A model generated the notes under the pieces. It had not been told where the DNA came from. It was given only the letters and a program-made list of their open reading frames with translations, and did no database searches. The translations under genes and the position numbers were made by a program. Positions 603 through 63,241 of a DNA stretch of 64,000 bases are shown one piece after another; position 1 is the stretch's first letter, and each line of letters opens with the position of its first letter. Origin of the DNA: Elusimicrobiota bacterium (lineage in GTDB: Bacteria > Elusimicrobiota > Elusimicrobia > UBA1565 > UBA9628); contig JAHFCE010000003.1 of NCBI GenBank assembly GCA_023249675.1, positions 111,785 through 175,784 on the forward strand. The letters run 5' to 3'.

Positions 603-608
603 AGAGCG

Positions 609-1151: not shown

Positions 1152-1152
1152 A

Positions 1153-1698
1153 ATGGCCATGCAACTGTCGAAGCAGCAGCAGCAATACCTCGGCGCCGGC
1201 GCCGTGCTGTTCGTCGTCCTCGGCGCTGTCTATGTGAAGTTCTTTTGGCTGCCCATCGCGCAGGCCAAGGCCGAGGCCACCGAGAAGATCGCTCAGATCG
1301 AGGCCAAGATCGTGAAGGCCAAGCAGCAGGCGGCCCGCCTCGAGCGCCTGCAGGCTGAAATCGCGAGCCTGAATGAGCGTGCAGCCGAGGCCGAGAAGCG
1401 GCTGCCGAAGACGAAGTCCGTGCCCGACATCCTGCTTGCGATCTCTGGGCTCGCGCAGAAGAATCGCGTGGTGATTCAGAGTTTCGCGCCGGGACCGCAG
1501 AAGAGCCAGACATACTTTATCGAGCTGGCTTATCCTCTTGCGGTGCGTGGTTCCTATCACAATATTGGCCGCTTTCTGGCTGCCCTCTCGCTCGAGGAGC
1601 GGATATTCAATGTGAGGGACATCAATTATCCATCGGCCGACGCTTTTGGGGACATGACTGTGACCCTGACCTTGCTCTCGTATCAGTACAAAGGATGA
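1153..1698 (+). CDS. pilO: Type IV pilus assembly protein PilO
   Basis: 181 aa with an N-terminal TM, a coiled coil and a C-terminal ferredoxin-like region. It starts 1 bp after the pilN stop and overlaps pilP by 4 bp. Confidence 0.75.
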   Translation: MAMQLSKQQQQYLGAGAVLFVVLGAVYVKFFWLPIAQAKAEATEKIAQIEAKIVKAKQQAARLERLQAEIASLNERAAEAEKRLPKTKSVPDILLAISGLAQKNRVVIQSFAPGPQKSQTYFIELAYPLAVRGSYHNIGRFLAALSLEERIFNVRDINYPSADAFGDMTVTLTLLSYQYKG

Positions 1699-2177
1699 TA
1701 ACCTTCGCCCTCGTTTTACTTTTCGCGATGGCCGGTCCCACGCAAGCGGGACCGGCGCCGTCACCGGCCGCGTCAACGGGCGCCATTTTGCCGATTGGAG
1801 CTTCGACGCAGACCGTGTCGAGCCTCTACACCGGCGACCGCGTGCGCGATCCCTTTCTGCCCTCCGCGATGGGCGTCACCGGCCCGCGCCGAGTCGAGGA
1901 TGCGAAGACAGCCGGCTCTATGGTCTTGGACATTCACAGCATGCTTCTGCGCGGTATCATGAAGGACCCAAAAATCGACTACGCGCTGTTCACCTCCGAG
2001 GATGGCGGCACCTACCTTTTGCGCGGCGGCAAGCTCTACAACGAACGCAATAAGCCGGTCACGGGCATCACGGGCGTCATCAAACTCAAGCAAAAGACCG
2101 TGGAGCTCATCACGTCCGATAAGGACGTTCAGGTATTTCGTCTCGGCGAAGATGAGAAAGAAAAAGAGAAGCCCTAG
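1695..2177 (+). CDS. pilP: Type IV pilus assembly protein PilP-like (signal peptide, periplasmic)
   Basis: 160 aa with a signal peptide and a beta-rich C-terminal domain ending in a Lys/Glu-rich tail. Its position between pilO and pilQ matches the canonical pilMNOPQ order. Confidence 0.6.
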   Translation: MITFALVLLFAMAGPTQAGPAPSPAASTGAILPIGASTQTVSSLYTGDRVRDPFLPSAMGVTGPRRVEDAKTAGSMVLDIHSMLLRGIMKDPKIDYALFTSEDGGTYLLRGGKLYNERNKPVTGITGVIKLKQKTVELITSDKDVQVFRLGEDEKEKEKP

Positions 2178-2190
2178 CCGCGGAGAATTT

Positions 2191-28956: not shown

Positions 28957-29909
28957 TTTTTAGGGGGCGAGGAAAGCGTGTTGCGCAGGCTGCGGGCTGC
29001 GCGAGCAGAAAAGTCGATGCGCGTGGGAGCTGTCAGGGGGGACAGTTCGAGGACCGCGTCTGCGGTTTGGCCGCGGGCGAGCTCGACGCGCGTGCGCGCC
29101 CAAAGGGCCGCGGCGTCGCCGGGAGACTCTTTGAGCACCAAGGCTGCTTCTACGAGGGCCTCCCCAGGACGACCCGCCTCAACGAGCCAGAGCGCCTTGG
29201 CTCGGCGTGCGCCGATGTCCGCGCCGTGTGCCAGCGCGGCGTCGAGGGCGGCAAGAGCGCCCGTCAGGTCTCCCTGCGCGCGGCGCGCGAAGGCGGTCAG
29301 GATATGGCCCTCGGGATTATTTGGATCGAGAGCGATCGCGCGCTCGATGGCCAGGCCAGCGGTTGCCCAGCTGCGCTGCGCCAGCAAAGTTTCAACGTAG
29401 GAGCGCCACACGTCCGCGCGGCCATCGAGGGTTTCGAGCGCGGTCTCGTAGTGCGACGCGGAGCGGTCGAGGAAGCCGAAACGGCGGTCGATCTCGGCGA
29501 GGCCCAGATGAGCGCCGAAGTGTTTTGGCTCGTAGACGATCGCCTTGAGGTAGAAAACACGGGCCTGCTCATCAAGGCCGGCGCTATGAAGTAGGTCGCC
29601 CTGGCGTGTCAGCAGGTCTACGTTCTTGGGGAACAACTTCACGCCGAGCTGGTAGACGCCGAGAGCTTCATCCACGCGTCCGAGCAAGTCGAGGCTGTCG
29701 CCCATGAGCACATAAGCCTGCCGCAGGTCGGTGCCGCGTAGGGTCTGTAGGAAGTCCGGGGTCAGCGCCGCGATGACTTCGGCAGGTTTGTGCGCATCTG
29801 AGAGTGTCTGCACCGGGCGAATCTTCTTGTCCGACGGCTCGCCCCACAGTCGCCAGGCGCGGGCGGGGCTCGCGAGGAACAGCAAAGACAGCAGGAGCGC
29901 CGATTTCAT
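28953..29909 (-). CDS. TPR-repeat protein with signal peptide
   Basis: Signal peptide followed by several TPR-like helical repeats. Confidence 0.6.
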   Translation of the reverse strand: MKSALLLSLLFLASPARAWRLWGEPSDKKIRPVQTLSDAHKPAEVIAALTPDFLQTLRGTDLRQAYVLMGDSLDLLGRVDEALGVYQLGVKLFPKNVDLLTRQGDLLHSAGLDEQARVFYLKAIVYEPKHFGAHLGLAEIDRRFGFLDRSASHYETALETLDGRADVWRSYVETLLAQRSWATAGLAIERAIALDPNNPEGHILTAFARRAQGDLTGALAALDAALAHGADIGARRAKALWLVEAGRPGEALVEAALVLKESPGDAAALWARTRVELARGQTADAVLELSPLTAPTRIDFSARAARSLRNTLSSPPKK

Positions 29910-30859
29910 TTGACCGCCTTCGCCCCCCAGCCGTCCGTCAGCTTAGGGATCGAGGCCAGGATGAGGCTTTCTTTTGCCGCCTCGAGGCGCGTGGAGGCGG
30001 CGATGATGCCCTTCTCGATCGCCTCGACGACACGGTGATCCTCGAACATGCCGATGTCGCCGACGGGCGGCTCGATGATAAAGTCGGCCTGTTTGCGTTG
30101 CTCGTGCGATAGGTAGGAGCCGCGGATGTCGATGACCTGCATGAGGGATTCAAGGACGTTCTGCGGGCGCGCGGCCGTGTAGTCCGTCTCGGTGACGCTT
30201 GCGATCGTCCACTCGGCGCCGAGCAGCCGCGAGGCGTCCACCGGGATATAGTCCACGACGCCGCCGTCGACGAGGAAGCGGTGGCGGTACTCGAGAGGGC
30301 GGAAGATGCCTGGCAGGTTCATACTCGCGCGCACGGCCTTAGCGACGTCCCCGTCGCGGAAGATAATGGCCTCGCCGGTGTAGACGTCCATTGCCACGCA
30401 GGCGAAGGGCTTGAGCGTTTGGTCGAAGCGGATGCCGCCGATGCCTTTGCGCAGCAGCAACTCGGTCTTCTCAGAGGACAGGAGCCTGTCGAAGAGCAGC
30501 AGGGAGATCAGCCGCGCCGACGAGAGGTCGTTGCCGCTGCCAACCCGGATTGAGGCGGCGTACTCGCGTAGCCGCTGCAGCGGCATGCCCGAGGCGTAGA
30601 GCGCGCCCATGACCGCGCCCATGGAAGTGCCCACGACCGAGTCGATTGGGAAGCCCGCGTCTTCGAGCACCTGTATCACGCCGGCGTGCGCGACGCCGCG
30701 CAGGGAGCCGGCGGAGAGCACGAGGCCGACTTTGGGGCGGCGATTTTCCGGGGCCTGGCGCACCTCGCGCCACAGATGATCGCGCAGGAGTGCCTCGGCC
30801 GATAGATCGGGAGCGGCGTATGCGGGAGCTGCGAGCAGCAGCGCCAGCAGGAGCTTCAC
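29906..30859 (-). CDS. Secreted patatin-like phospholipase
   Basis: Signal peptide. 'GLVLSAGSLRGVAHAGV' is the oxyanion hole, 'GTSMG' is the GxSxG motif and 'VDGG' is the catalytic Asp. Confidence 0.8.
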   Translation of the reverse strand: MKLLLALLLAAPAYAAPDLSAEALLRDHLWREVRQAPENRRPKVGLVLSAGSLRGVAHAGVIQVLEDAGFPIDSVVGTSMGAVMGALYASGMPLQRLREYAASIRVGSGNDLSSARLISLLLFDRLLSSEKTELLLRKGIGGIRFDQTLKPFACVAMDVYTGEAIIFRDGDVAKAVRASMNLPGIFRPLEYRHRFLVDGGVVDYIPVDASRLLGAEWTIASVTETDYTAARPQNVLESLMQVIDIRGSYLSHEQRKQADFIIEPPVGDIGMFEDHRVVEAIEKGIIAASTRLEAAKESLILASIPKLTDGWGAKAVK

Positions 30860-32151
30860 TGCGGGAGCTCCCGACCCACGGCGCGCTCGAATCGCGCGCG
30901 GGCCAGGATATGCTCCGTGACGGCGGAGAGATAGGCGAGCCGCAGCTCAAGGACGCCGTCGCGGGCGCGCAGGCGTGAGAGCGCCGGGCCGGATTTGTCG
31001 GCGGCCTCATCGTAGAGGGCCGAGACTCTCTTCCATTGGCTCTCGCGGCGCGGCCACTCTTCCTGCCACCAGCGCAAAGTCTCGGCGGCCTGGCGGACCT
31101 CGAGGCGCACGCGGTCCTGCAATTCGGCGCGGGTCAACTCGCCCTGGCGCTGTTCGGCGCGTTTTTGCTTGAGCTGGCTCCAGAAGTCGTAGGCGAAGGG
31201 AATCCTGATGCCGAGCGTCATATCCCAATTGTTATTCTTGAGCGGAAAGCGCTGGGCGGTCAGTTCATAGTCGCCGGCGAGGAACACGGTCGGGTTGCGG
31301 CGGCTGATCGCGAGGTTCACGCCGATCGCGTCCATCTGCACGCGGTAGGTCTGCGACTGGAGCTCGGGGCGCAGCTCCATCGCCCAGATGACGGCTTTCT
31401 CCACCTCGGCCTTTGCGGACCGAGTCTCAAGAGCGCCCTGCACGCGGAAAGGCGTGTCGAGCTCGAGGCTCAAAGTGTTGAGGAACTGCAGGCGCGCGCT
31501 GTCGAGCATGTGCTTGGCTTCCGCGGCGCGCGAGCGCGCGAGACCCAGTCCGACCTCGGCCTCGACTCGCTCCCACGGCCCCAGGTCGCCTGTCGAGGCG
31601 GCCGCCTCGACGTTCCTCAGATGAAGGTCGAAGGCATTCGCGCGTTCCTGCGCAAGCAGGAGGCGGTAGAAGGCTTCTTTCCCGCGCAACGTGACGTCCA
31701 GCTTGACCGAATCCCTATTGGACTGAGCCTGTTTGAGGGAGGCTTGCGCGAGGCGCAGCGTGTTCATCGTTCGCTGGCCTTCGTAGAGCGGCATGTTGAA
31801 GTAGGCGCGCCCGGAGTAGATATTCTCGCTCGATGCGCCCGGGAATAGGAGCAGGCTGCGAAACTCGGGTGACAGCGCGAACGGGGAGCGCGCATCGTAT
31901 TTGGTGGCGCTTGCTTGCAGACCGACGTCGGGCAGGAAGCGCAGCCGTGCCTCCGTGACGCGCGCGTCGGCGATGATGACGTCCTGCTCGGCGCTTTGAA
32001 GTTTGGGATCGTTGCGCAGCAGGCGCAAGGTCTCTTCGAGCGTGTACACGCGGTCGGGCAGGGAGGGGCGCGCCGCGCCCTGCGCTCGCGCTGGGGGCGG
32101 CGTCCCGGCGAGAGCGAGGCAGAGCGCTGCGGTAAAGAGTCGGTTGATCAT
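30856..32151 (-). CDS. TolC-like outer membrane efflux protein (OEP family)
   Basis: Signal peptide plus two OEP repeats with coiled-coil segments. Confidence 0.7.
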   Translation of the reverse strand: MINRLFTAALCLALAGTPPPARAQGAARPSLPDRVYTLEETLRLLRNDPKLQSAEQDVIIADARVTEARLRFLPDVGLQASATKYDARSPFALSPEFRSLLLFPGASSENIYSGRAYFNMPLYEGQRTMNTLRLAQASLKQAQSNRDSVKLDVTLRGKEAFYRLLLAQERANAFDLHLRNVEAAASTGDLGPWERVEAEVGLGLARSRAAEAKHMLDSARLQFLNTLSLELDTPFRVQGALETRSAKAEVEKAVIWAMELRPELQSQTYRVQMDAIGVNLAISRRNPTVFLAGDYELTAQRFPLKNNNWDMTLGIRIPFAYDFWSQLKQKRAEQRQGELTRAELQDRVRLEVRQAAETLRWWQEEWPRRESQWKRVSALYDEAADKSGPALSRLRARDGVLELRLAYLSAVTEHILARARFERAVGRELPQ

Positions 32152-32172
32152 ATCGAGGGACGTCGAAAATGG

Positions 32173-33820: not shown

Positions 33821-34615
33821 TTAGAAGCTGTTGCTGTACTTCAACTGCACGGTGCGTTCGGGGCCTCGCGGGGCGCCGTCGCCGTAGAAGCCGCCCGCGC
33901 CGATCGCGCGCACTGCGAAGTCCACATGGAAATTCGGGGTCAGGTACGTGCGTAGGCCCATGTTCAGGCGTGAATCGCTCCAGTTGTTGATGTTGTCCCA
34001 CTCGATGAGAATCGCGGCCTTGTCGCGGATGTTGATCGTCATCGGCAGGCAGCCGAAGAGGCCGTTCGAGTCGAAATCGGAGACATTGAACGACGGGTGC
34101 AGCTGGAGGCCCGGCACGCCAAGCTCTTGCGTCGCCGCGACATAGAAGCCGCGCTGGCGCTGATTGAAGCGGCGGTCGTTCGCGTTGTAGAGGTAGCCCT
34201 GGCCGTCGAAGCCGACCGCGAGGGCTGGCATCTTGCTGTCGCCATCGTAGAAACGCCACTTGACCTGTGCTGTCGGGGCGCGCATGCGCACTTTGCGTTC
34301 GTCGCCGATCAGGCCGTCCACCGCGGCGGAGGCGCCGAGGTTGACGCCGGGGTACACGCCGAATGAGATGTGCTGCAGAATGCCGCCGCGCGCGTAGAAG
34401 CGCGAGCGCGCGGAATACCCGTAGTTGTCAAGCACCGCGGTCGTCGGCGCGTCGATGATGTCGGTGTCGGGCTGGACGTTGCCGTCGCGCGCGGAGCGCG
34501 GGGCGGAAGAAGCCTTGGGCTTGATCTTTACCGGTGAGGAGGCGGACTCTTCGGAGCGCAGGCTGGTGGTTCCCAGGAGGAGCAGCGCGGTCAGGAGGGG
34601 AAGTCGGATTTTCAT
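33821..34615 (-). CDS. Outer-membrane beta-barrel protein (hypothetical)
   Basis: Signal peptide, alternating amphipathic strands and a C-terminal Phe. Confidence 0.5.
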   Translation of the reverse strand: MKIRLPLLTALLLLGTTSLRSEESASSPVKIKPKASSAPRSARDGNVQPDTDIIDAPTTAVLDNYGYSARSRFYARGGILQHISFGVYPGVNLGASAAVDGLIGDERKVRMRAPTAQVKWRFYDGDSKMPALAVGFDGQGYLYNANDRRFNQRQRGFYVAATQELGVPGLQLHPSFNVSDFDSNGLFGCLPMTINIRDKAAILIEWDNINNWSDSRLNMGLRTYLTPNFHVDFAVRAIGAGGFYGDGAPRGPERTVQLKYSNSF

Positions 34616-34631
34616 TGATCAGCCTGATGGG

Positions 34632-38629: not shown

Positions 38630-38684
38630 GGAACCGCTGCGGAGAGGCATCATACCAAAAGCCGCTTTGCTACAATGCGGCGCG

Positions 38685-39224
38685 ATGAGAAAGGGCGATA
38701 AGGGCCTGATCGAGACATTCGTCAGCAAAAAAACGGTCTGGCGCGGCAGGGCGGTCAACTTCGATGTCGACACCGTGCGGCTTCCGAACGGAAAACTTGC
38801 GACTCGCGAGTACATCTCTCATCCCGGCGCTGTCGGCGTCGTGCCCTTTCTCAACCGCGATACGATCGTCATGGTTCGCCAGTATCGTCATCCTGTCGGC
38901 GAGGTGACGCTCGAGCTTCCCGCCGGCAAGATCGATCCGCGCGAGTCCATCCTTGCCTGCATCAAGCGCGAACTCGCGGAGGAAACCGGCTACACCGCCC
39001 GCGCCTTTAGGCCGCTGATCCGATATTGGCCGACCCCGGCCTTCGCCAACGAAGTCCTGCATTTGTACGTCGCGACGGGTCTCAAGGCAGGCCGCGTGAA
39101 CACCGATGCGGATGAGTTTCTCGAGGTGGTCAACGTGCCTTTCCGGCGGGCCCTCGAGATGGTGCGCCGCGGCAAGATTCGGGACTCAAAAACCGTCGTG
39201 GGCTTGCTCGCCTGCGCCGTCTAG
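38685..39224 (+). CDS. NUDIX hydrolase (ADP-ribose pyrophosphatase-like)
   Basis: Nudix box 'GKIDPRESILACIKRELAEETG'. A TACAAT -10-like box lies about 9 nt upstream of the chosen ATG. Confidence 0.75.
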   Translation: MRKGDKGLIETFVSKKTVWRGRAVNFDVDTVRLPNGKLATREYISHPGAVGVVPFLNRDTIVMVRQYRHPVGEVTLELPAGKIDPRESILACIKRELAEETGYTARAFRPLIRYWPTPAFANEVLHLYVATGLKAGRVNTDADEFLEVVNVPFRRALEMVRRGKIRDSKTVVGLLACAV

Positions 39225-41255
39225 ATGAAGCCTGAAGAAATCCAGACGTGGGAGTCCTTCCTCAAGCGAACGCCCTTGTTCGCGGGCCTGTCGGCTGAGG
39301 ACTTGGGCAAGCTTGCCTCGCGTCTGCAGCTGCTGTCCCTGCCGAAGGGCGCGACTTTGTTCAAGCAAGGCGGCGAGTCCGACGCGCTGTACCTGATCGT
39401 CTCGGGCCATGCGCGCCGCTACCGCCTGACCGATGGGCGCGACGCGCTGGTGGCCTATCTCGGCCGCGGCGACATCGTCGGAGAGACGGGCCTGCTCACG
39501 AGCGCGCCGCGCTCTTCGACCGTTCGCGTGGACGCAACCAGCGAGCTGCTGAAGCTGCCGCGCAAGGATTTCGAAGACGTCCTGCGCGAACACCCGACCA
39601 TCCTGCGGCACCTGTCGCGCACGCTCGCCCACCGCCTCATCGAGGGCGGCCAGTCTTCGCCGCGCCCTTCTTCCGAGCAGGCCCGTCTCGTGGCGCTTGA
39701 CTGCGCTTTGCCGCGCAGCGAGCGGGCCTTGATCTCCTGGCGTCTTGGCGCCGAGCTGGCGGCGCAGACCCGGAAAAAAGTTCTTATCGTGGACCTGGCG
39801 GTCGAGCCCGGCGACATCGCGCGCGCCGCCGGCCTCAAGCCTTCGCCCGTGACCGAGACCGAGCTGCGCGGCGCGAATTTGCGCGACCCCGCCGCGCTGG
39901 CGGCGATGGCGCAGGAGCATCCATCGGGCGTGCGCGTTCTGTCGGTCTCGCCCGCCGCGCTCGGCGGCCGCCTGTTCAGCCAGCTGTACCTGTTCCTGAA
40001 CGCCGTGCGCGATAGCCACGAACTCGCCTTGCTGTGCTTGGGAGGGCCGCGCGGCGATGTCGAACGCGCAGCGCTCACCGAGGCCGATCTGATCCTGATG
40101 GCCGGCTGCGACGCGATGCGCCCGCAGTACCGCCACATGGAAGTCGAGGTGCCGCCGCTCGCTGAGGAGTCGCGCCGCCTCTTGAGGCTGTGGATCGGAG
40201 ATCTCGAACCCGAGGACGCTCCGCTGCTCATCGGAGCTGAGCGCGTCCTCGTGCCGTGGAGCGAGGCCGCGACCGAGGCCTATGAGCGCGACGGCGAGGC
40301 TGACGCCGCTTTCGCCCTCGAGCCGAAGGCGGCGAAAACGCTCGGCCGCCTGGCGCGTCGCATCGGCGGCGTCCAAGTGGGTCTGGCGCTGGGCACGGGC
40401 GCAGCGCTCGGCCATGCGGCGATCGGCGTGCTGAAAGTATTGAAACGCGAGGGCATTCCGGTGGATCTCATCGCCGGCACCTCCATGGGCTCCCTGATCG
40501 GGGGTTGCTATGCCGCCGGCTATGAGCCAGAGGAAATCGAGGAGCTTGTCCTGCGCATCGACAAGTCCTGGGTGTATGAGAATCTGTTCTGGGACCTCAC
40601 GATCCCGCGCTCGGGCTTCTTCGCGGGCGATACGATGCTGCGTTTTATCCGCTCTTACATGGGCTCGCGCGAGTTCGGCGACATGGACATTCCGTTCGCT
40701 TGCGTGGCCGCCGATATCGAGACCGGGGAGGAGGTCGTCCTCCGGCACGGCCGCGTTGCCGAGGCAATTCGCGCTTCGTGCGGCCTCCCCCTGATTTTTG
40801 AGCCGACCCAGCTGTCCGGGCGCTGGCTCGTTGACGGAGGCCTCGTCAATCCGGTGCCGACGCGCGTCATCGCCGATATGGGCGCTGACATCCTGCTCGC
40901 GGTCAACCTGACCTTGCCCGCCGGCGAGCGCAAGACGTCGGTGCACGAACGCCACAGTCGGCGCCTCTTGGATCAGCCGTTGTCATTGGAGACCTTGCGC
41001 CAGGCGGCGTTGCCCGTGCTGCCCAAGGCTTTCCGCGCGCCCAATTTTCTCGAGGTATTCTTCCAGATGATCTACACGATGGAGTACGAGGTGGCGCAGT
41101 CGCGTCTGGATTTGGCGCATGTGACCATGTTCCCCGATTTGAAGGGCTTCTCATGGACCGAGCTACATCGCGCCGGCGAGATCATTCGCGCGGGTGAGCT
41201 CGCGGCGGAAGAGGCGTTGCCGCGTCTTAAGGCCTTGATTCCCTCTCGACGTTGA
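39225..41255 (+). CDS. Cyclic-nucleotide-binding domain fused to a patatin-like phospholipase
   Basis: The N-terminal CAP-family cNMP-binding fold reads 'GGESDALYLIVSGHAR...GETGLL'. The C-terminal patatin has 'GLALGTGAALGHAAIGV', 'GTSMG' and 'VDGG'. Confidence 0.8.
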   Translation: MKPEEIQTWESFLKRTPLFAGLSAEDLGKLASRLQLLSLPKGATLFKQGGESDALYLIVSGHARRYRLTDGRDALVAYLGRGDIVGETGLLTSAPRSSTVRVDATSELLKLPRKDFEDVLREHPTILRHLSRTLAHRLIEGGQSSPRPSSEQARLVALDCALPRSERALISWRLGAELAAQTRKKVLIVDLAVEPGDIARAAGLKPSPVTETELRGANLRDPAALAAMAQEHPSGVRVLSVSPAALGGRLFSQLYLFLNAVRDSHELALLCLGGPRGDVERAALTEADLILMAGCDAMRPQYRHMEVEVPPLAEESRRLLRLWIGDLEPEDAPLLIGAERVLVPWSEAATEAYERDGEADAAFALEPKAAKTLGRLARRIGGVQVGLALGTGAALGHAAIGVLKVLKREGIPVDLIAGTSMGSLIGGCYAAGYEPEEIEELVLRIDKSWVYENLFWDLTIPRSGFFAGDTMLRFIRSYMGSREFGDMDIPFACVAADIETGEEVVLRHGRVAEAIRASCGLPLIFEPTQLSGRWLVDGGLVNPVPTRVIADMGADILLAVNLTLPAGERKTSVHERHSRRLLDQPLSLETLRQAALPVLPKAFRAPNFLEVFFQMIYTMEYEVAQSRLDLAHVTMFPDLKGFSWTELHRAGEIIRAGELAAEEALPRLKALIPSRR

Positions 41256-42816
41256 CGAGGGACAGGTGCGCGCCCTCGAGATCGCCCGAGGCGATCTGGC
41301 CGAAAATCGCCGTGAAGCACGACAGCCTGCGGTGGCGGCCCGCGACCTTGCGTCCGTATGACGTGGACTTCGCGTATGTGACGATCACATCATCGAGGAT
41401 CTCGCGCCAGCGGGGTTGCTTGAATGAGTTCTCGGCCACCCGGTAGGCAACCAGGCGATAATCAGACATGTCGCGTGAGAGATCGCGGCGCAGGCCGCGG
41501 CTTTCGGCCATCCTCTTCTCGATCGCGGCGATCTGTGAGAGCCATCCATCGGACCGCAGGGCGTCGAGCGATTGGCGGGCGTTCTCTTTGAGCTTGGCCA
41601 GGCGCTCCTCGTAGGACTCTCCGCGGCGTTTGTAGGATGCGCGGACGGCGGCGGCGGCCGGCGCCGCGGCGATGACGGCGAGCAAGTCAGCAGTGAGGAA
41701 TCCTTCTTCGGATTCGATGCGTGCGAGCTCCTCTTCCAGCGACGCCACGGTGAGCCAGCGCGCGGCCTCGCGTTGGCGGACGGAGAGTTCGATGAGAAGG
41801 GTCTTGGTGATTTGATTCGGGTCCTTGCTCTTCTCGGCGGCGGCTGCGAAGGAGGCGAGCGCCGACTTGGCCCGGTCGACCGCGGCGGCGCGTGCGATGA
41901 AGCGCTGCGATAATTTGTCCGCCGAGGTCTTGGCGAGCAGACGCGTCTCAAGGCCCGGGTCCTGCATGTCCTGTGCGGTCAGCTGGACCCCGCCCAACGT
42001 CGCAAGCTCGGCGAGGCGCGCGCGGCGCAGGCGCTCCTCGAGGTTGACGAGGTCATACGTGAGGCCGTACGTGGGATAGGACAGGGTCGCGTGGTCGAGT
42101 TTGCCGGTTTCGATCAGCTTCGGCGCGCCTGGGGGGCGGCGCGCGTTGAGCGCGCTCTGCAGGGACATCAGTTGGGGGGAGTAGCCGCGGATGTTACCGG
42201 CGGAGAGGCGGTCGTAGAATGAGCTCGCGAGCGCGGCGCTTGCCGAGGTATCGGAGGAGGCCTTGCCTTCGGGCGCCTGTGCCGCGATGACCTTCTCGCC
42301 TTGCGAACCCCTGCCCTCGAACAGGCTGCGGAGAAGTTCGCGCTTCTCCTCCTCGCCGGTCTGCTGGTCGGGGCTGCCCATGAGCTTTGACGTCTTCGCC
42401 GCACCCTTGAGCACGCCGAAGGCGCCGCGATCGGTGTTGTTGCGCTGGAAGGTTTGCTTGATGCGCTTGACCACGGTGTTCTCAAAGAGGTGCGTGCCGT
42501 CGGCCTCATCCTTGGCGAGACCGAGCGCAATCTCGGCGGCTGGGCCGAGGTCGCCCTGCACCCAGGCGCGGATGTCGGAGCGTTTTTTCTGGTCGTCGCG
42601 CTCCTCGCTGATGGCGCGCGCGATTTTCGACCGTAGAATGCGGTCGACGAGAGCCTCCTGAAGGCCGGGGTCGCTTTCGAGTTGTCGACGCATGTCGGCG
42701 ATGGCCTCGGAGCGGTCGCCCTCGACCGCGGTTCCTGCGGGTGTCGAGCTCGGTTCGCCGTCGTCGGCACGTAACACAGGGGTGAAGAGAAGGATCGTGA
42801 GGAGGGCCGTTCTCAT
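41227..42816 (-). CDS. Hypothetical secreted alpha-helical protein
   Basis: Signal peptide with helical low-complexity content. It is the last gene of the HK-TldD operon. Confidence 0.45.
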   Translation of the reverse strand: MRTALLTILLFTPVLRADDGEPSSTPAGTAVEGDRSEAIADMRRQLESDPGLQEALVDRILRSKIARAISEERDDQKKRSDIRAWVQGDLGPAAEIALGLAKDEADGTHLFENTVVKRIKQTFQRNNTDRGAFGVLKGAAKTSKLMGSPDQQTGEEEKRELLRSLFEGRGSQGEKVIAAQAPEGKASSDTSASAALASSFYDRLSAGNIRGYSPQLMSLQSALNARRPPGAPKLIETGKLDHATLSYPTYGLTYDLVNLEERLRRARLAELATLGGVQLTAQDMQDPGLETRLLAKTSADKLSQRFIARAAAVDRAKSALASFAAAAEKSKDPNQITKTLLIELSVRQREAARWLTVASLEEELARIESEEGFLTADLLAVIAAAPAAAAVRASYKRRGESYEERLAKLKENARQSLDALRSDGWLSQIAAIEKRMAESRGLRRDLSRDMSDYRLVAYRVAENSFKQPRWREILDDVIVTYAKSTSYGRKVAGRHRRLSCFTAIFGQIASGDLEGAHLSLVNVERESRP

Positions 42817-43559
42817 TTCCGCGCCCCATTTTTTTCCGTTGATGTTGACGTTTCCGTTTCAAAAGAGAACACGTCCCGCCTTCCCGAACGCACCACCCCA
42901 TCGTCGCCGATGCGGGCCAGCCCGAGCGTTAAATCCGAGGTCTCAATGTCCTTGCGCGTCTTCGTCCACAGATCAAAAAATGAATGCGTGTCGCTCTTGT
43001 CGGGCACGTTCCAGCGCGCGACCGCGTAGCGGCCTCCGGGTGTGAGAGCGAGGCTCACGAGGCGGGGGAAGGGCCCCGCCTGCAGCTGGGAGCCGCCCGT
43101 CCAGTCGCGCGCCTCGACGGACCACGACTCATCGACATGGCACGCGATCAGGATAACCTTCGAGTCGTTTGAAAATACGACGGGATCGCCTTTCTCCGGC
43201 CAGTCGACCGCGTCGTGGCTCCACAGCGTCTGTCCCGTTGAGCCGTGGATCTTGAGCACGCGGTGGGACTCGAGCAGTTTGCTTCGCGAGGGGCTCCAGG
43301 TGAGCTTGCGCTCAAGCGTCCAGGCCGCGCGCCCGTCCGGGGACGGGCCGCCGAGGACCTCGCGCGTGACGGTGCTGCTCTCCTCGCGCACTAGGCCAAT
43401 TTCGAAGACGAGGGCGCCCGCGGCGTCATAGAGCACAAGCGACTTGCCCTGTTTCGACCAGCCCGGCGTCGAGCGCGGTACGACCATCTCAGGCAGTGCG
43501 AGCACCTCCGCCGCGGAGGTGGGAAGCGCGAGCGCTGCGGCGAGCAGAGCGGCGATCAC
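42813..43559 (-). CDS. Hypothetical secreted beta-rich protein
   Basis: Signal peptide; Trp/Ser-rich beta strands. 4-bp overlaps with both neighbours. Confidence 0.45.
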   Translation of the reverse strand: MIAALLAAALALPTSAAEVLALPEMVVPRSTPGWSKQGKSLVLYDAAGALVFEIGLVREESSTVTREVLGGPSPDGRAAWTLERKLTWSPSRSKLLESHRVLKIHGSTGQTLWSHDAVDWPEKGDPVVFSNDSKVILIACHVDESWSVEARDWTGGSQLQAGPFPRLVSLALTPGGRYAVARWNVPDKSDTHSFFDLWTKTRKDIETSDLTLGLARIGDDGVVRSGRRDVFSFETETSTSTEKNGARK

Positions 43560-43981
43560 TTCGGCGCGGCCTCATCTGGCGGGACGGGAACGACGAATAT
43601 TTTCCCCTTCACGCGCGTGAACGCACGCACTGTCCAGGGACGAGAGATGACCTGGGTTGTGAAGCCGGTTGGGGTCTTGATCTTGTAGCGCACGGTCAGG
43701 TCCATGCCCCTGGGGATCGGTTTGAGGAACTCGACGGTGTAGCCGCCGGTCGGGCGCTCGCCCGCGAACACCGCGACGGCGAAATGAGTCTTGAAGTTGA
43801 GAGGGGGCGCGTCCTGGCCGAGCGTGCGCCACAGGCGCGTCCAGGCTCTCGCGTCGGCGGCGACCTCGGCGCCGGCGTCGATCGGGCCGCCGTGCTGTCC
43901 CTTCCACTCCAGGGTCTTCTCCACTTGCTTTGCGTGCGCGGGGCTCGCGCACAGAATTGCCGCGATCATCCAATTAATCAT
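43556..43981 (-). CDS. Hypothetical secreted protein, possibly PrcB_C-like
   Basis: Probable start at 'MINWMIAAILCASPAHA'. The segment 'FAVAVFAGERPTGGYTVEF' resembles the PrcB C-terminal domain consensus; this is from memory and not verified. Confidence 0.4.
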   Translation of the reverse strand: MINWMIAAILCASPAHAKQVEKTLEWKGQHGGPIDAGAEVAADARAWTRLWRTLGQDAPPLNFKTHFAVAVFAGERPTGGYTVEFLKPIPRGMDLTVRYKIKTPTGFTTQVISRPWTVRAFTRVKGKIFVVPVPPDEAAPK

Positions 43982-45353
43982 GACTGCCCCCCACGATGAG
44001 TTTGGGCATGCGGATCGTGGGCTGGCCATCGCTGACCGGAACGTTTTGCCCCTCTTTACCGCAGACGCCGATACCCCAGCCGATGTCCCAGCCGACGCGA
44101 TCGATCGAGCGTAGGGCTTCGGGCCCGACGCCGAGCAGGTTCGCGTCGCGCACGAGGTGCTTGACGGCTCCGTTCTCGATGCGCCAACCTTCGTCCACTT
44201 CGAAGACGAACTCGCCGCTCGCGGTGTCCACTTGGCCGCCGCCCATGCGCGTGACGAGCAGGCCGCGCTGAAGCTCCTTGATGATCCTGGCCGGATCGTC
44301 CTTGCCGGGCGCGATGTAAAGGTTCGACATGCGCGGGATCGGGCGCGCGGCGAAGGATTCGCGGCGTCCGTGCCCGTTTGAGGCGCGGTTCTCGCTCAGG
44401 GCCGTGGCGCGATCATACAGAAAGTCCGTGAGGACCCCATTGCGCACGAGCTCGGTCGCCCGCGCCGGCACGCCCTCGTCGTCGAACGCAAACGAGCCGC
44501 GCTGGAACGGCAAAGTGGGGTCGTCGACGACGGTGATCGTCTCGGGTGCGACGATCTTGCCCCGCATGCCCCGGTACGCGGGCGAGGAGCCCTCCTGGAC
44601 GTGGTCCGCCTCGAGTGAATGGCCGATGGCCTCATGGATGAAGGTGCCGCCCGCCGCCGCGGCGAGGACGACCGCCATCTCGCCGGCCTTGGCTTTAGGC
44701 GCATCGAGTTTGGCGAGCGCGCGCGCCGCGGCCCGGCGCGCGGCCTTGAGCGCCGCCCCGTCATCGAACACCTCAAAGCCGCGCTGTGCGCCGATGACCT
44801 CCATGCCGGTCTGCAGAATTCCGTCGCGCTCGGCGACGACGGAGACCAAGAGGCTGATCGACACGCGTCTTTGGACGATGTCGGTCCCTTCGGAATTGAG
44901 CAGGCGAGTGTCTTTTCTATGGTCGCTGTAGACGGCTGTCACTTGGCGCACAAGCGGGGAGAGAGACCGCGCGGCGCGGTCGATCCGGCTCAGCAGCGCC
45001 AGCTTATGCTCGAGCGGGACCGCCGCCGGATCGAGCCGGCACACGCTCGCGGCCGGGCGCGTCGCCGAAAACATGGGCCCGCGTTCGGGCGCGCCGGGCA
45101 GCAGCCGCTCGCGCAGGCGAGCTGCGGCGGCGGCCGACATGTCTTGCGCGCTGCCGAACAATGTTTCGACGCGGCCGCGGCCTCGCCGCAGGAGACGGAG
45201 TCCGAGGCCGCGCTCGTCGCTTGAGCCGATGTCGCGCACGGCTCTGTCCTCGAGCCGCGCGGTGGACTCGCGGGACTCCTCAAAGAAGACCTCACCGTAG
45301 TCGGTTCCGCAGAGAGCCGGGCCGTAGTCGTCGGCCCTGTCGCCAAGGCTCAC
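43974..45353 (-). CDS. tldD: TldD/PmbA-family metalloprotease
   Basis: 'HEAIGHSLEADHV' is the HExxxH motif and 'GGQVD' is present. The C-terminus is typical of TldD. Confidence 0.8.
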   Translation of the reverse strand: MSLGDRADDYGPALCGTDYGEVFFEESRESTARLEDRAVRDIGSSDERGLGLRLLRRGRGRVETLFGSAQDMSAAAAARLRERLLPGAPERGPMFSATRPAASVCRLDPAAVPLEHKLALLSRIDRAARSLSPLVRQVTAVYSDHRKDTRLLNSEGTDIVQRRVSISLLVSVVAERDGILQTGMEVIGAQRGFEVFDDGAALKAARRAAARALAKLDAPKAKAGEMAVVLAAAAGGTFIHEAIGHSLEADHVQEGSSPAYRGMRGKIVAPETITVVDDPTLPFQRGSFAFDDEGVPARATELVRNGVLTDFLYDRATALSENRASNGHGRRESFAARPIPRMSNLYIAPGKDDPARIIKELQRGLLVTRMGGGQVDTASGEFVFEVDEGWRIENGAVKHLVRDANLLGVGPEALRSIDRVGWDIGWGIGVCGKEGQNVPVSDGQPTIRMPKLIVGGSHD

Positions 45354-46885
45354 GCGTCTCTCTTGCGCGGCAAGGTCAGCGTGACGGTCGAACCCATGCC
45401 GAGCTTGGAGCTCAGGATCGCGCTGCCGCCGTGCAGCTCCGCGACCTTGCGCACGAAGGCGAGGCCCAGGCCCATGCCTTCCTGCTGGCCGGTAAAATCC
45501 TTCTCCACCTGATGAAAGCGGGAGAACACGCGCTCAAGCTCCTCCGGCGGCACGCCGGGTCCCGTGTCGGTCACCGTCACCGCGGCCCAGTCGCCTTGGG
45601 ACTCGGCGCGCAGCGCTATTGCCGGCGAATGCTTTACATTAAACTTGACCGCGTTGTCGATCAGGTTTTTGAGCGCCTCGACGACGAGCCGTTTGTCGCC
45701 CATGAGGATTAAACCGGTGGCGGTCGCCTCCACCGTCGCCTCGCGTTTGTCGATTTTTTCCTTAAGCGCCTCGAGTGCTTCCTTGATCGCCTCATCGAGC
45801 GAGAAAGGCTCCGGCTTGATTTGCGTGTCGGAGCTTTCGATGGTTGTGTAGCTAAGCAGCTTGTCGACGAGCTCGCTGACCTTGCCGCTCTGCGAGCGGA
45901 TCGCGCGCACGGCCTTGCTGATCGGTTGTTCGGTCTCCGCACCGAGCTCGCTGAGCAGAATGTCGGCAAAACCGGTCACGATCGCAAGCGGGGTGCGCAG
46001 TTTGTGCGAAATGAAGCTCAGAAACGTCCTCTTGAGCCTCTCCTGGCGGAAGCTTTCGGTGCGGTCACGGAACACGAATAGGCGCCCGTCGCTGTCGCCC
46101 AGGGGCGCGCGCGTCACGCGTCCCTCAAGGACGAGGAGGGTCGGATCTTTGCGTACCGCGGCAAAATCGAGCACCGGCCTATCGCCTGAGAACAGTTCGG
46201 GGATGGAGGGTGTGACCGCCATCGCGCTCAGACTCGCGACGAGATCCGTCAGCTCCGTTCCGAGAAGATGTGAGGCGGCCGCATTGGAGAGCAGGACCTT
46301 GCCTGCGGGATCCGTCAGGGCTGCGCCGTCGGTCATCTGCTCGAATACGGTCGCGAGCTTGAAGCGCTCCTCTTTGAGCGAGGAGAATAGCCGCGCGTTC
46401 TCAAGAGCGACCGCCGCTTGGGAGGCGAAAGCCTCGAAGGCGCGCAGGTCCGCGTCGCTGAAATCGCCGTCGCGCTTGTTGATGGCCTCGAGCACTCCGA
46501 CGAGGCGTCCTTTGATCAGCATCGGCACCGCCAGAATCGAGCGCGTGACGAACCCAGACTGCTCGTCTATCGCAGGCGACCAGCGCGGGTCTTCGCGCGC
46601 CACGTTGATGATCTCGGGCGCGCGGTTTTTGGCCACCGCCCCGGCGATGCCCTGGCCGAGCGGTAGGCGGATTTTTGTCGCATCGGGGCCGAGGCCTAAA
46701 GCCACGTCGAAGTAGAGTTCCTGGGTTTTCTCATCGAGCAGAAGGAGCGAGGCGCTTTCCGCCCCCACGACGTGAGTGGACAGCTCGAGTACCGCGGTCA
46801 GAAGTTCGCTGAGCTCGAGCTTAGAAGACAAGAGCCGTCCAACCTCGAGAAGCAGCTCCAACGTCTGCGCGTTCGTCGCGGGCAT
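45350..46885 (-). CDS. Sensor histidine kinase with N-terminal GAF domain
   Basis: A GAF domain is followed by a second sensory region, an H-box 'SHKLRTPL' and HATPase N/G boxes ('DNAVKF', 'DTGPGV', 'GLGL'). Confidence 0.8.
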   Translation of the reverse strand: MPATNAQTLELLLEVGRLLSSKLELSELLTAVLELSTHVVGAESASLLLLDEKTQELYFDVALGLGPDATKIRLPLGQGIAGAVAKNRAPEIINVAREDPRWSPAIDEQSGFVTRSILAVPMLIKGRLVGVLEAINKRDGDFSDADLRAFEAFASQAAVALENARLFSSLKEERFKLATVFEQMTDGAALTDPAGKVLLSNAAASHLLGTELTDLVASLSAMAVTPSIPELFSGDRPVLDFAAVRKDPTLLVLEGRVTRAPLGDSDGRLFVFRDRTESFRQERLKRTFLSFISHKLRTPLAIVTGFADILLSELGAETEQPISKAVRAIRSQSGKVSELVDKLLSYTTIESSDTQIKPEPFSLDEAIKEALEALKEKIDKREATVEATATGLILMGDKRLVVEALKNLIDNAVKFNVKHSPAIALRAESQGDWAAVTVTDTGPGVPPEELERVFSRFHQVEKDFTGQQEGMGLGLAFVRKVAELHGGSAILSSKLGMGSTVTLTLPRKRDA

Positions 46886-49564: not shown

Positions 49565-50623
49565 GTGAAGAAAACGCTTGTCGTCTTAGCGGCGCTTCTC
49601 CTGTGCCCCGCCGTCCAGGCCCGCAAACCAAAAATAAAAACCCTTCTCTCGGCTTTCGAAGCCGCAAAAACCGACGAGCGCATCCGTCTGGCCGCCGCTC
49701 TCGGCCGCAGGAAAAACAAAAAAACCACCGACGCCCTGCTCCTCGCCTTCGACGTCAAGCGCGGCGACCCGCGCGAAAGCGCCGCCTACGTGGACGCCCT
49801 TGGCCAAGCGGGCGATCCGCGCGCCGTCGAGCCGCTTGCCGCCGCTTGGGACTACCTCCGTTCCCTAATCCTTCCGATGGGCGGGCTCCCGGGGCAACTC
49901 CAGGTCCTGAGCGAGAAGATCCTCGACGCCCTGAGCCGTCTCGGCGGCGACCGGGCGGTGCGCGTTCTTTTTGAAGCGCTCGCCGATCCAGACCCGCGCG
50001 TGGCCCAAGAAGCCGTGCGCGGCCTCGGCCGTCTCCGGGTGAAGGACGCCGTCCCGGTTCTCCAGCAGAAGTTGGCGGCGGGCGCTTCGGGCAACCTCCT
50101 CCAGGCGATTTGTGAGGCCCTGGGCGACATCGGCGACAAGCGTGCCCTCTCCACTCTTGAGAAGTCGGCCGCGAATCCAGACACGCTCGTCGCGGCCGAG
50201 GTCTCCTACTCTCTCGTCAAGCTCGGCAAGAAGGAGGACCTGGTTCGCCTGCAGGGTTTCCTGGAGGGCGATTCCGGCGCGGGGGCCGCGGGCCTGCTCG
50301 CGGCCTACTACCTCGTCAAGCTCGATAAGGACGCGGGTCTTGAGTACCTCGAGAAAACGATGAAAAAGCGGGACAGCGCGCTGGCTCCCGTCGCGGCCGA
50401 GACCTTGGGCAAAACCGGCAATCCGCGCGCGGTCCTCGTTCTCATCGAGGTTCTCCAGGCGCCGGATTCCGCCGTGCGCCTCTCGGTGGCGCGCGCTTTG
50501 GGGCGCTTGGGCGGGCCGCGCGCGGTGACGGCCTTAAAGAAGCTGCGCGCCGACCCCGATCCCGGCGTGAGCGGCGCGGCCGTCAACAGCCTGAACGATC
50601 TTGGCGAAATCGACTTGAGATGA
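49565..50623 (+). CDS. Periplasmic HEAT-repeat (PBS-lyase HEAT-like) protein
   Basis: Signal peptide followed by repeated 'D..VR..A..ALG.lgd..A...L' units. Confidence 0.7.
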   Translation: MKKTLVVLAALLLCPAVQARKPKIKTLLSAFEAAKTDERIRLAAALGRRKNKKTTDALLLAFDVKRGDPRESAAYVDALGQAGDPRAVEPLAAAWDYLRSLILPMGGLPGQLQVLSEKILDALSRLGGDRAVRVLFEALADPDPRVAQEAVRGLGRLRVKDAVPVLQQKLAAGASGNLLQAICEALGDIGDKRALSTLEKSAANPDTLVAAEVSYSLVKLGKKEDLVRLQGFLEGDSGAGAAGLLAAYYLVKLDKDAGLEYLEKTMKKRDSALAPVAAETLGKTGNPRAVLVLIEVLQAPDSAVRLSVARALGRLGGPRAVTALKKLRADPDPGVSGAAVNSLNDLGEIDLR

Positions 50624-52824
50624 GCCGAGAGACGCGCATCGGCGACTGTTGGGGCGGCCTGGCTGCGATGCTCGTCGCCCTTCCCCAGGCCTTGGCTTTC
50701 GGCGTGGCGATTTTCGCCCCGCTGGGACCCGAGCGCGCGGCCGAAGGGGCTCTCGCCGGCCTCGTGGGCGCGGCCGCGCTCGGCATGGTGGCCGCCTGGC
50801 TGGGAGGCGCGCCGCGCCTGGTCTCAGCGCCCTGCGCGCCGGCCGCGGCGGTGCTGGGCGGCCTTGCCGCCGTGCTTGCCGCGCGCTATGGGCCTGAGCG
50901 AGCGGCGGCACTTCTGATGCTCACCGGCCTGTTCTCGGCTTTGCTCCAGCTCGCCTACGGCTTAGCGGGGGGAGGTCGCCTCATCAAATTTATTCCCTAC
51001 CCGGTCGTGACCGGCTATCTGAGCGGCGTCGCCGTGCTCATGGCGCTCAGCCAGCTGCCGCGCCTGCTGGCCTTGCCCGCGGGCGCCGGCCTCGCTGCCG
51101 GGCTCGCGTCTCCGTCCTCCTGGAGCGGGCCGGGCTTGATCGTGGGCCTAACGGCGATGTTCGCCATGGTCGTGGCCCCGCGCCTGACCAAGGCCGTTCC
51201 CGCGCCCGTCGTGGGGCTGGCCGCGGGTGTGACCGCGTACTGGGCGGCCAGCCTTGTCCATCCTGAATTGCGCACTGTGTCGGGCAACGCGCTCGTCGTC
51301 GGGCGTCTGCCGGGCGGCATCGCCGGGATGTGGTCGGCGCTGGGTTCGCGCTGGTCGGGCTTGAGCGGTTTTGACGCGGGCATGTTCAAGGCGGCGGCCA
51401 TGCCCGCGGCCACGTTATCGCTTCTTCTCTCCGTCGACACGCTCAAGACCTGCGTGGTCGTCGACACGCTCACGCGCTCGCGCCACGATTCTGATCGCGA
51501 ATTACGCGGCCAGGGCCTGGGCAACCTTGCCGCGGCTTTGCTCGGAGGGGCCGCGGGTGCTGGCACGATGGGGGCCACCCTGGTCAACATCAATGCGGGC
51601 GGGCGCACGCGTCTCTCCGGTGCGCTGGCCGGGGCCTTCACTGTGCTGACCCTTCTGCTGGCCGGCCCGCTCGTCGCCTGGGTGCCGGTGCCGGCGTTGG
51701 CCGGCATCCTGCTCATCGTGGCTTGGCGCATGTTCGACCGGAAAAGCCTTCGTCTTCTGAGACGCCGCTCGACCCAGCTTGATTTCGCCGTGAGCGCCGC
51801 CGTCATCGTCGCCGCCGTCAGCATCGATTTGATCGCCGCCGCGGGAATCGGCATCGGCCTGGCCGCGCTTCTCTTCCTGCGCGACCTCTCGCGCGGCTCC
51901 GTCGTGCGCCGCAAGGTCCGTGGCGACGCCGTGACCTCGCGTCAGCGCCGCCTGCCCGCCGAGCGCGAGGCCCTGCGCGAGTTGGGCTCGGCCGTCGTCC
52001 TCTGCGAGCTGCAGGGAAGCCTCTTTTTCGGCACCACGGACCAGCTGCTCAGCGAGCTCGACGCCGACCTCAAGACCTGCCGCTTCGTCATCCTCGACCT
52101 CAAGCGCGTGCAAAGCGTCGATTTCACCGCCGCGCACATGCTCAAGCAGATCGAGGACCGTCTGCACGAGCGCGGCGGCCGCCTGCTGCTGTGCCAGCTG
52201 CCGCAAAACCTGCCCACCGGCCAGGACCTCGAGTCCTATTTCGCCGAGGTGGGATTGGTCAAGCCCGAGCGCTTTGTCAGCGTTTTTGGCGAGCTCGACG
52301 CCGCCCTCGAGTGGGTCGAAGACCGGCTCCTGTCCGACGCGGGCCTGGCTCCGCCCGTTTCGGCGGCGCCGCTGGGCCTTCAAGACATCGAGCTGTTCCG
52401 CGAGCTCGACGCCGATGAGACGGCCTCCGTGCGCTCCATCCTGCGCGAGCTTTCCGCGCCCGCGGGTTCGGCCGTCTTTCGCCGCGGCGAGGCCGGCGAT
52501 GAGGTTTTTCTCATCCGCAAGGGCCGCGTGCGCATCCTCCTTCCCCTCGAGGGCGGCAAGGAGCATCACAAGGAACACCATGTGGCCACCTTCGGCCGGC
52601 GCGACTTCTTCGGCGAGGTCGCCTTCCTCGACCGGGGCGCTCGCACCGCCGACGCCGTGGCGCTGACCCCCACGGAGCTTTTCGCGCTGTCGCGCGCGCG
52701 CTTCAACGACCTGTCCCGCTCCCACCCCGCCTTGGGCGCCATGCTTTTTGCGCGCTTGTCGCACGCCCTGGCCCTGCGCCTGCGCCAGGCCGATGAGGAG
52801 CTGGGACTGCTCCACGACGCTTAG
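50620..52824 (+). CDS. SulP-family anion transporter with STAS domain and C-terminal cyclic-nucleotide-binding domain
   Basis: The SulP TM core is followed by a STAS domain ('VVLCELQGSLFFGTTDQL') and a cNMP-binding fold ('FRRGEAGDEVFLIRKGRVRI...FGEVAFL'). Confidence 0.8.
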   Translation: MSRETRIGDCWGGLAAMLVALPQALAFGVAIFAPLGPERAAEGALAGLVGAAALGMVAAWLGGAPRLVSAPCAPAAAVLGGLAAVLAARYGPERAAALLMLTGLFSALLQLAYGLAGGGRLIKFIPYPVVTGYLSGVAVLMALSQLPRLLALPAGAGLAAGLASPSSWSGPGLIVGLTAMFAMVVAPRLTKAVPAPVVGLAAGVTAYWAASLVHPELRTVSGNALVVGRLPGGIAGMWSALGSRWSGLSGFDAGMFKAAAMPAATLSLLLSVDTLKTCVVVDTLTRSRHDSDRELRGQGLGNLAAALLGGAAGAGTMGATLVNINAGGRTRLSGALAGAFTVLTLLLAGPLVAWVPVPALAGILLIVAWRMFDRKSLRLLRRRSTQLDFAVSAAVIVAAVSIDLIAAAGIGIGLAALLFLRDLSRGSVVRRKVRGDAVTSRQRRLPAEREALRELGSAVVLCELQGSLFFGTTDQLLSELDADLKTCRFVILDLKRVQSVDFTAAHMLKQIEDRLHERGGRLLLCQLPQNLPTGQDLESYFAEVGLVKPERFVSVFGELDAALEWVEDRLLSDAGLAPPVSAAPLGLQDIELFRELDADETASVRSILRELSAPAGSAVFRRGEAGDEVFLIRKGRVRILLPLEGGKEHHKEHHVATFGRRDFFGEVAFLDRGARTADAVALTPTELFALSRARFNDLSRSHPALGAMLFARLSHALALRLRQADEELGLLHDA

Positions 52825-54959: not shown

Positions 54960-55119
54960 CGCCTCAGTATGCCCGGCGCACCCCGCGCCCGCGAGAGTCT
55001 TGCGGCCCAAACCGTCTAGGTCTGATATCTGAACGCAAACGCCCCGAAAGACCCATGCCTTTTAAGTCGGTTGCTGGTAGCATACGCTGTCGCTGAAATC
55101 CAAACTTTGAGGTTTTAAA

Positions 55120-58930: not shown

Positions 58931-59049
58931 CGGCTTTTTAAAGTATAACAGTTATACCTCCTCGGTGCCAGGGCGAACTGCATCATTCTCCATGTCTTTA
59001 TACGATCGACCCCCGCCGAAAGTTCCATCAAAAGCGGTATCCTAGACGA

Positions 59050-63154: not shown

Positions 63155-63241
63155 GGAGAGGTGGCCGAGCGGTTTAAGGCACCAGTCTTGAAAACTGGCG
63201 ACGTGTAACAGCGTCCGTGGGTTCGAATCCCACCCTCTCCG
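63155..63241 (+). tRNA. tRNA-Ser (anticodon UGA)
   Basis: Acceptor stem GGAGAGG/CCTCTCC, D-loop 'GCCGAGCGGTTTAAGGC', anticodon loop 'CTTGAAA', long variable arm and T-loop 'GGTTCGAATCC'. No encoded CCA. Confidence 0.85.

Follow-up and report, generated by a model that had tools for sequence, protein, structure and literature searches.

How a cyclic nucleotide monophosphate (cNMP) signal could be passed on to a lipase is the question raised by a gene of an uncultured Elusimicrobiota bacterium that carries a cyclic-nucleotide-binding (CNB) domain and a patatin hydrolase in one polypeptide. The gene lies on contig JAHFCE010000003.1 (NCBI GenBank assembly GCA_023249675.1), of which a stretch of 64,000 nucleotides, positions 111,785 to 175,784 of the forward strand, was analysed; this whole stretch is the window, and all coordinates are counted from its first nucleotide. 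We find a third domain between sensor and hydrolase and read the protein as a cytoplasmic cNMP-regulated acyl hydrolase, in which the CNB domain would control the patatin active site and a dead MinD-like domain would serve in dimerisation, as a scaffold or in localisation. We give this reading a probability of roughly 0.6. A first-pass annotation of the sequence had described the open reading frame (ORF) from 39225 to 41255 as a CNB domain plus patatin. These coordinates are exact and both Pfam matches stand above their cutoffs, but the third domain at about residues 150-384, one third of the protein, had been overlooked, as had the deviant glycine-rich loop of the patatin domain and a translationally abutting NUDIX gene. 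The gene and its domains are the following:

39225..41255, plus strand: CNB / pseudo-MinD / patatin gene, 676 aa (ORF and Pfam)
39225..39650, plus strand: N-terminal CAP-family CNB domain, residues ~1-142 (Pfam, PDB sequence matches, invariant cassette)
39672..40376, plus strand: MinD/ParA/TadZ-like middle domain, residues 150-384, a pseudo-ATPase lacking both Walker motifs (A and B) and the second switch Asp
40377..41252, plus strand: C-terminal patatin (RssA/PlpD-like) domain, residues ~385-676 (Pfam, PlpD 5fqu, RssA model)

The cNMP_binding match of the lipase (PF00027) covers residues 38-123 with an E-value of 2.9e-22 and 78.9 bits against a cutoff of 27.5; the Patatin match (PF01734) covers residues 387-548 with an E-value of 2.1e-33 and 116.6 bits against a cutoff of 27.7. 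The phosphate-binding cassette of the CNB domain, GETGLLTSAPRSSTV, has the canonical form GE..L....PR[ST].T, with G86-E87...R96 encoded at about nucleotides 39480-39512. These three residues are invariant in an alignment of 23 orthologues with identities down to 55%, and a cassette of this type is found in 118 out of 120 homologues. The best sequence matches of the domain in the PDB are PKA regulatory subunits and CRP.

The middle domain, residues 150-384, has no Pfam match, AAA_31, CbiA and ParA included. Its relationship was established by structure comparison and profile searches, which assign it the fold of the MinD/ParA (SIMIBI) ATPases. A profile of this segment, run over 1.84 billion representative proteins, matched only 198 of them at E <= 1e-3; 29 reached E <= 1e-10. 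As sampled, the strong matches share the architecture of CNB domain, middle segment and patatin, and the weaker ones are receiver/TadZ_N plus AAA_31 proteins of the CpaE/TadZ type and one CNB plus AAA_31 protein (P0309). Against E. coli MinD, hhalign gave only a 36-column match (E 0.18), and among PDB sequences BceF was the sole match of the profile, a weak one (E 0.086). In the alignment with TadZ-type ATPases and MinD, the Walker A motif KGGxGK[ST] is replaced by ALPRSER at unchanged loop length and the Walker B Asp by Leu or Ser, while the first Asp (D190) is all that remains of the switch D-x-D. Distant members of the lipase family likewise lack the P-loop. Having lost both Walker motifs and the second switch Asp, the middle domain is an ancient pseudo-ATPase of the MinD/ParA/TadZ lineage. 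In P0309 (577 aa), the CNB domain precedes a genuine MinD/ParA ATPase of the AAA_31 type, whose KGGTGKTT motif is intact; the C-terminal 250 residues are unannotated. The CNB / pseudo-MinD / patatin family could plausibly go back to a protein of such a layout.

The catalytic residues of the patatin domain, the nucleophile Ser420 in GTSMG and Asp537 in DGG, are both invariant in the 23 orthologues, as are many residues around them, and G-x-S-x-G is seen in 119 of the 120 homologues. The best sequence match in the PDB is PlpD (5fqu, E 1.9e-38); the RssA equivalog of NCBIfam (NF007623) is matched with an E-value of 2.3e-45 and 155.1 bits, below its cutoff of 272. The glycine-rich oxyanion loop deviates. 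It reads G390-T-G-A-A-L-G396, so the glycines are kept and the pattern G-G-x-[R/K]-G is absent. Patatins normally carry Arg or Lys at this position, which is Leu in 116/120 close homologues and Leu, Tyr or Phe in distant family members; the outgroup stand-alone patatins with a recognisable loop all show G-x-G-x-A-R-G or GGGAKG. A hydrophobic residue is typical of the neutral-lipid hydrolases PNPLA2-5, the PNPLA2/ATGL type having G-x-G-x-x-G. With this exchange, the lipase may act on a substrate different from the usual anionic phospholipid head group, or its basal activity may be reduced; the likeness to PNPLA2-5 is only a lead as to the substrate of the lipase. A C-terminal tail LP.F[AS]D[YH]C[KR]VP.R with an invariant Cys occurs in P0089-P0120 and in distant members at identities of up to 59% (columns 700-718 of alignment A1), and is absent from the window lipase and its close relatives. 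The window also encodes a second patatin:

29906-30946, minus strand: stand-alone patatin with a signal-peptide-like N-terminus (Pfam 4.6e-31)

Its glycine-rich loop, GSLRG, has the normal Arg, and the gene adjoins a TolC/OEP-like gene (30856-32172). This secreted Arg-loop patatin provides an internal contrast to the Leu-loop fused lipase.

In a full-length model of the lipase, with a predicted local distance difference test score (pLDDT) of 69.9 overall, the joint between CNB and middle domain is a low-confidence linker (residues 136-151), and the helix that ends the middle domain (367-380) continues directly into the first patatin strand. According to the mechanism that we propose, a flexible linker, some 15 residues long, would tether the CAP-type CNB domain to pseudo-MinD and patatin, which would together form a rigid unit. 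Binding of a 3',5'-cyclic nucleotide, cAMP or cGMP, would most likely turn the activity of the Ser-Asp hydrolase on or off. The inactivated MinD-like domain would no longer bind ATP and is probably a dimerisation, scaffold or localisation module, by analogy with its TadZ/CpaE-type relatives; in TadZ-type proteins, MinD-like domains serve these roles. Domain identities, conserved motifs, the lost ATPase motifs, synteny and distribution are read from the sequences themselves; the ligand, the direction of regulation, the role of the middle domain, the substrate and any functional link to the NUDIX enzyme are what we infer.

A second CNB domain of the window resides in an anion transporter, for which the first-pass annotation had given the exact coordinates and the domain order; all three Pfam domains were recovered:

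50620..52824, plus strand: SulP/SLC26 anion transporter with STAS and C-terminal CNB domain, 734 aa (Pfam)

Sulfate_transp matches residues 8-394 (E 3.1e-47, 161.6 bits), STAS residues 459-529 (E 3.5e-11, 43.3 bits) and cNMP_binding residues 612-701 (E 1.1e-18; 67.4 bits against the cutoff of 27.5). The Pfam scores of both ORFs far exceed the curated thresholds, and the domain matches are therefore not due to chance. The transporter scores below the model cutoffs of BicA (222 vs 880 bits), DauA (200 vs 614) and sulP (173 vs 380). Its start overlaps the stop of a HEAT-repeat gene (49565-50623) by 4 nt. The SulP-STAS-CNB architecture is common to more than 120 clusters with identities of at least 53%, from Elusimicrobia, Myxococcota, Verrucomicrobia, Acidobacteria and Gammaproteobacteria; a literature search yielded no experimental study of such a protein, and it is apparently a widespread, annotated, unstudied design. 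The transporter, 9 kb from the lipase, is an independent cNMP-sensor-fused anion transporter. Convergent with it lies a further gene:

52821-55010, minus strand: 729-aa protein with a signal-peptide-like N-terminus, without Pfam, NCBIfam or PADLOC match

The C-terminal half of this protein looks ATP-grasp-like by eye (…IEFRVDVLDGHVV…YVIIETNPG…).

The cassette of the transporter, GEVAFLDRGARTADAV, carries Gly and Arg in 118/118 homologues and Glu or Asp in 118/118. The two CNB domains of the window are 31% identical to each other and are ordinary paralogues. A loss of the conserved Arg/Glu had been named beforehand as the sign of degenerate, non-binding folds; Gly-Glu/Asp...Arg is kept in both proteins, and since both cassettes are intact and conserved, the CNB domains are not degenerate. 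Inspection of the ligand-specificity residues finds Ser or Thr after the cassette Arg, which does not separate cAMP from cGMP. This residue occurs in the cAMP-binding CRP and the cGMP-binding PKG alike, and the nucleotide specificity is therefore not readable from the sequence. Given conserved cassettes on both a lipase and a transporter, cNMP control of the two proteins is a reasonable inference from their domains. The part of the initial interpretation that placed CNB domains on both proteins holds; its anti-phage comparison, weighed below, does not.

Where would the cNMP come from? ORFs of the window were picked by codon-position GC, and among the about 45 that were scanned against Pfam there is no nucleotide cyclase (Guanylate_cyc, CYTH, CD-NTase or other), in agreement with the earlier statement that the window has none. 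Six scanned ORFs have no Pfam match (5626-7581, 7479-9419, 33821-34618, 41227-42816, 42813-43559 and 52821-55010). Three of them, 41227-42816, 42813-43559 and 52821-55010, all on the minus strand, flank the CNB genes and have signal-peptide-like N-termini, and are therefore unlikely to be cytoplasmic cyclases. Taken together, the two CNB proteins indicate that the organism may use cNMP signalling with a cyclase encoded elsewhere in the genome.

Directly upstream of the lipase lies its probable operon partner:

38685..39224, plus strand: NUDIX hydrolase, NudE / ADP-ribose-pyrophosphatase-like, 179 aa (Pfam NUDIX 7.5e-17)

The protein matches the NCBIfam NudE model with an E-value of 4.8e-23, below the equivalog cutoff, and its Nudix box is intact (GKIDPRESILACIKRELAEETGY). 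Read from the sequence, its start is the ATG at 38685. No nucleotide separates its TAG stop codon from the ATG of the lipase, so that the two genes probably form an operon with NUDIX in first place. The longest-ORF calls of NUDIX (start 38469) and of dnaE (start 38815) overlap by ~350 nt, and both are too long; by homology and sequence, dnaE starts near 38630 (MSKPEFVHLHNHSEYS). The divergent intergenic region between the two genes thus spans 54 nt and contains a TACAAT box at 38671-38676.

The distribution of the lipase was followed in 47 loci, L072 included, plus one N-terminally truncated fragment (L044). According to tblastn, NUDIX is directly upstream of the lipase in all full-length loci that retain upstream sequence (46/47). 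The adjacency holds where dnaE has moved away (L040, L042) and where the downstream genes differ (L025, L028, L034, L035). In L081, the locus of a distant family member, the protein upstream of the lipase was tested as a diverged NUDIX protein and is not one. The surrounding conserved block consists of pfk, two hypothetical genes and dnaE on one strand and nudix and lipase on the other, followed after the lipase by two secreted hypothetical proteins, pmbA/tldD and a GAF histidine kinase. In tblastn searches with the window neighbours, it is syntenic across about 46 Elusimicrobiota metagenome-assembled genomes (MAGs) at identities of 47 to 91%. The kinase is encoded as follows:

45350-46885, minus strand: GAF-HisKA-HATPase histidine kinase, translationally coupled to pmbA/tldD (43974-45353)

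This pair keeps its synteny across the clade, and no receiver partner is found nearby; GAF domains are also able to bind cyclic nucleotides. All named homologues of the lipase come from Elusimicrobia/Elusimicrobiota MAGs, where they are labelled 'NTE family protein' or 'patatin-like phospholipase family protein'. With one genome taken per species, full-length relatives occur in MAGs labelled Elusimicrobiota only, save two labelled just 'bacterium'; outside Elusimicrobiota the patatin domain alone was matched, in searches whose patterns themselves lay in the patatin domain. The lipase is a conserved, vertically inherited core gene of one lineage of uncultured Elusimicrobiota.

Several observations weigh against a cNMP-regulated hydrolase that acts with its neighbour. 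The cassette Arg is lost in the distant family members P0249, P0253, P0256, P0259, P0267, P0272 and P0325, which indicates that cNMP binding is not obligatory for keeping the fold; replacements are, e.g., His, Gln, Tyr and Cys, the pseudo-MinD and patatin parts being retained in these proteins. Binding may thus have been lost repeatedly within the family. No cyclase was found among the about 45 Pfam-scanned ORFs of the window, and a regular-expression scan of the window and 80 loci (1.35 Mb) found no class III cyclase motifs, a crude search without positive control that does not show absence. Two distant members have no NUDIX neighbour, one of them (L082) carrying a divergent CRP-family gene instead, and the NUDIX link may be a lineage-specific synteny without functional coupling. 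Finally, patatin residues 452-545 are poorly predicted in the full-length model (pLDDT <50), and any geometry of autoinhibition would be a guess from a model that carries no inter-domain confidence.

The lost Arg residues and the missing cyclase would suit a lipase whose CNB domain is structural or senses something else, as in CooA, CprK and FNR-type proteins, the hydrolase then being a constitutive or otherwise regulated housekeeping esterase for lipid remodelling. The adjacent NUDIX enzyme, which acts on nucleoside-diphosphate compounds, adds a hint of another nucleotide ligand. We consider this unlikely, however: the cassette is canonical, Gly86, Glu87 and Arg96 do not vary in the clade of the window, the best CNB sequence matches, PKA-R and CRP, are true cAMP binders, the same window encodes another CNB protein whose Arg is invariant, and in L082 the family member has a CRP-family gene as neighbour. 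Somewhat less probable still is a patatin domain that is catalytically impaired or repurposed, whether as a cNMP-dependent scaffold, a lipid-binding protein, an acyltransferase or a PNPLA2-5-like neutral-lipid hydrolase. Here the family-wide G-x-G-A-A-[L/Y/F]-G, which stands against R/K in every related stand-alone patatin, agrees with the equally hydrophobic PNPLA2/ATGL-type loop, and the middle domain, a third of the polypeptide, has already become a pseudo-enzyme; yet the invariance of Ser420, Asp537 and many surrounding residues indicates selection on catalysis.

The likeness to anti-phage phospholipase effectors drawn in the first-pass annotation did not survive. It would make the lipase a cNMP-activated, membrane-degrading phospholipase similar to CBASS CapV or Pycsar effectors, with the cyclase encoded elsewhere. 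Indeed, both concepts share an effector controlled by a nucleotide second messenger, and Pycsar effectors likewise use CNB domains: the lipase CNB matches the CNB part of the Pycsar PycTIR model (6.4e-16), its patatin part weakly matches the PADLOC phospholipase effectors (1.5e-7), and there is a weak match to CBASS_lipase. These matches are, however, generic and confined to single domains, and the CBASS_lipase (CapV) model reaches 18.1 bits against a cutoff of 200. CapV, moreover, senses cGAMP without a CNB domain. Pfam scans of the about 45 ORFs and PADLOC reveal neither a CD-NTase nor a PycC/Pycsar cyclase in the window, adjacent to the lipase or otherwise, and the gene sits beside dnaE in a core block whose synteny extends over about 46 MAGs, contrary to what a variable defence island would show. 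Because of the core synteny, the single-domain matches and the CapV score we reject the anti-phage reading, to which we leave a chance of very few per cent. The cNMP-regulated acyl hydrolase remains our preferred reading. A more far-reaching version of it is tentative, and we hold it for clearly less probable: that the protein represents a so far undescribed type of signalling lipase, where a TadZ-like MinD domain without P-loop would have become the transducer or scaffold between a CNB sensor and a patatin with an ATGL-like, non-basic oxyanion loop, which may act together with NUDIX on a nucleotide-linked or neutral lipid instead of bulk membrane phospholipid, and which would be derived from CNB plus MinD-ATPase proteins such as P0309.

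Among known proteins, those of the NTE family (PNPLA6/NTE, PNPLA7, yeast Nte1 and M. tuberculosis Rv2565) share with the lipase a CAP-type CNB domain and a patatin Ser-Asp hydrolase in one polypeptide. NTE has three CNB domains, an N-terminal membrane anchor and the loop GGGGARG; the lipase has one CNB domain, no such anchor and no Arg in its loop. It also differs from NTE in the 235-residue P-loop-less MinD/TadZ-like insert between sensor and hydrolase. Rv2565 is listed as a CNB-domain esterase (PMC4886424, PMC10865251). The RssA/PlpD patatins give the best catalytic-domain matches and have the same GxSxG and DGG motifs. The lipase stays below the RssA equivalog cutoff (155 vs 272), lacks the POTRA and beta-barrel domains of PlpD, and differs from both in the exchange of R/K for Leu in the loop and in two extra N-terminal domains. 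Compared with the TadZ/CpaE ATPases (receiver-like domain plus AAA_31, e.g., PDB 3fkq), its sensor is a CNB and not a receiver domain, neither Walker motif nor the second switch Asp is present, a hydrolase is fused C-terminally, and no pilus genes surround it. From CBASS CapV and Pycsar it is set apart by the lack of a cyclase partner, by its core synteny and by a score far below the CapV cutoff. The transporter shares the SulP membrane domain and STAS with SulP/SLC26 proteins such as BicA and DauA and scores below both equivalog cutoffs; a C-terminal CNB domain as cytoplasmic regulatory module recurs in transporters and channels (MloK1, SLC9C1).

CNB plus patatin and SulP-STAS-CNB are known domain combinations, annotated in public databases. 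A literature search on CNB-patatin proteins, SulP-STAS-CNB proteins and Elusimicrobia cyclases gave no relevant experimental paper. As far as our searches show, the inserted pseudo-MinD domain, the family-wide non-basic glycine-rich loop and the conserved NUDIX partner are undescribed.

The remainder of the window holds genes away from the two CNB proteins:

1-4260, plus strand: type IV pilus cluster pilM-pilN-pilO-(gap)-pilQ secretin
58942-60837, plus strand: peptidase M2, angiotensin-converting-enzyme (ACE)-like (E 6.4e-223, profile 3-581 of 581)

O-antigen-ligase-like and glycosyltransferase genes follow the pilus cluster up to about 23 kb, and the large ORFs 5626-7581 and 7479-9419, which have no family match, lie in this region. 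Bacterial ACE homologues are uncommon. An Rfam scan of the window detects a tRNA at 63155-63241 only.

CNB-patatin fusions, human NTE/PNPLA6 included, are poorly understood, notably as regards any control by cyclic nucleotides. A compact soluble bacterial lipase with a single canonical CNB domain would offer a tractable model for the coupling of sensor and lipase, and the protein is a further case in which a MinD/ParA ATPase has been turned into a pseudo-enzyme module within a signalling protein. The findings on lipase and transporter do not overturn current understanding. They indicate that in uncultured Elusimicrobiota cNMP signalling may reach lipid as well as anion homeostasis.

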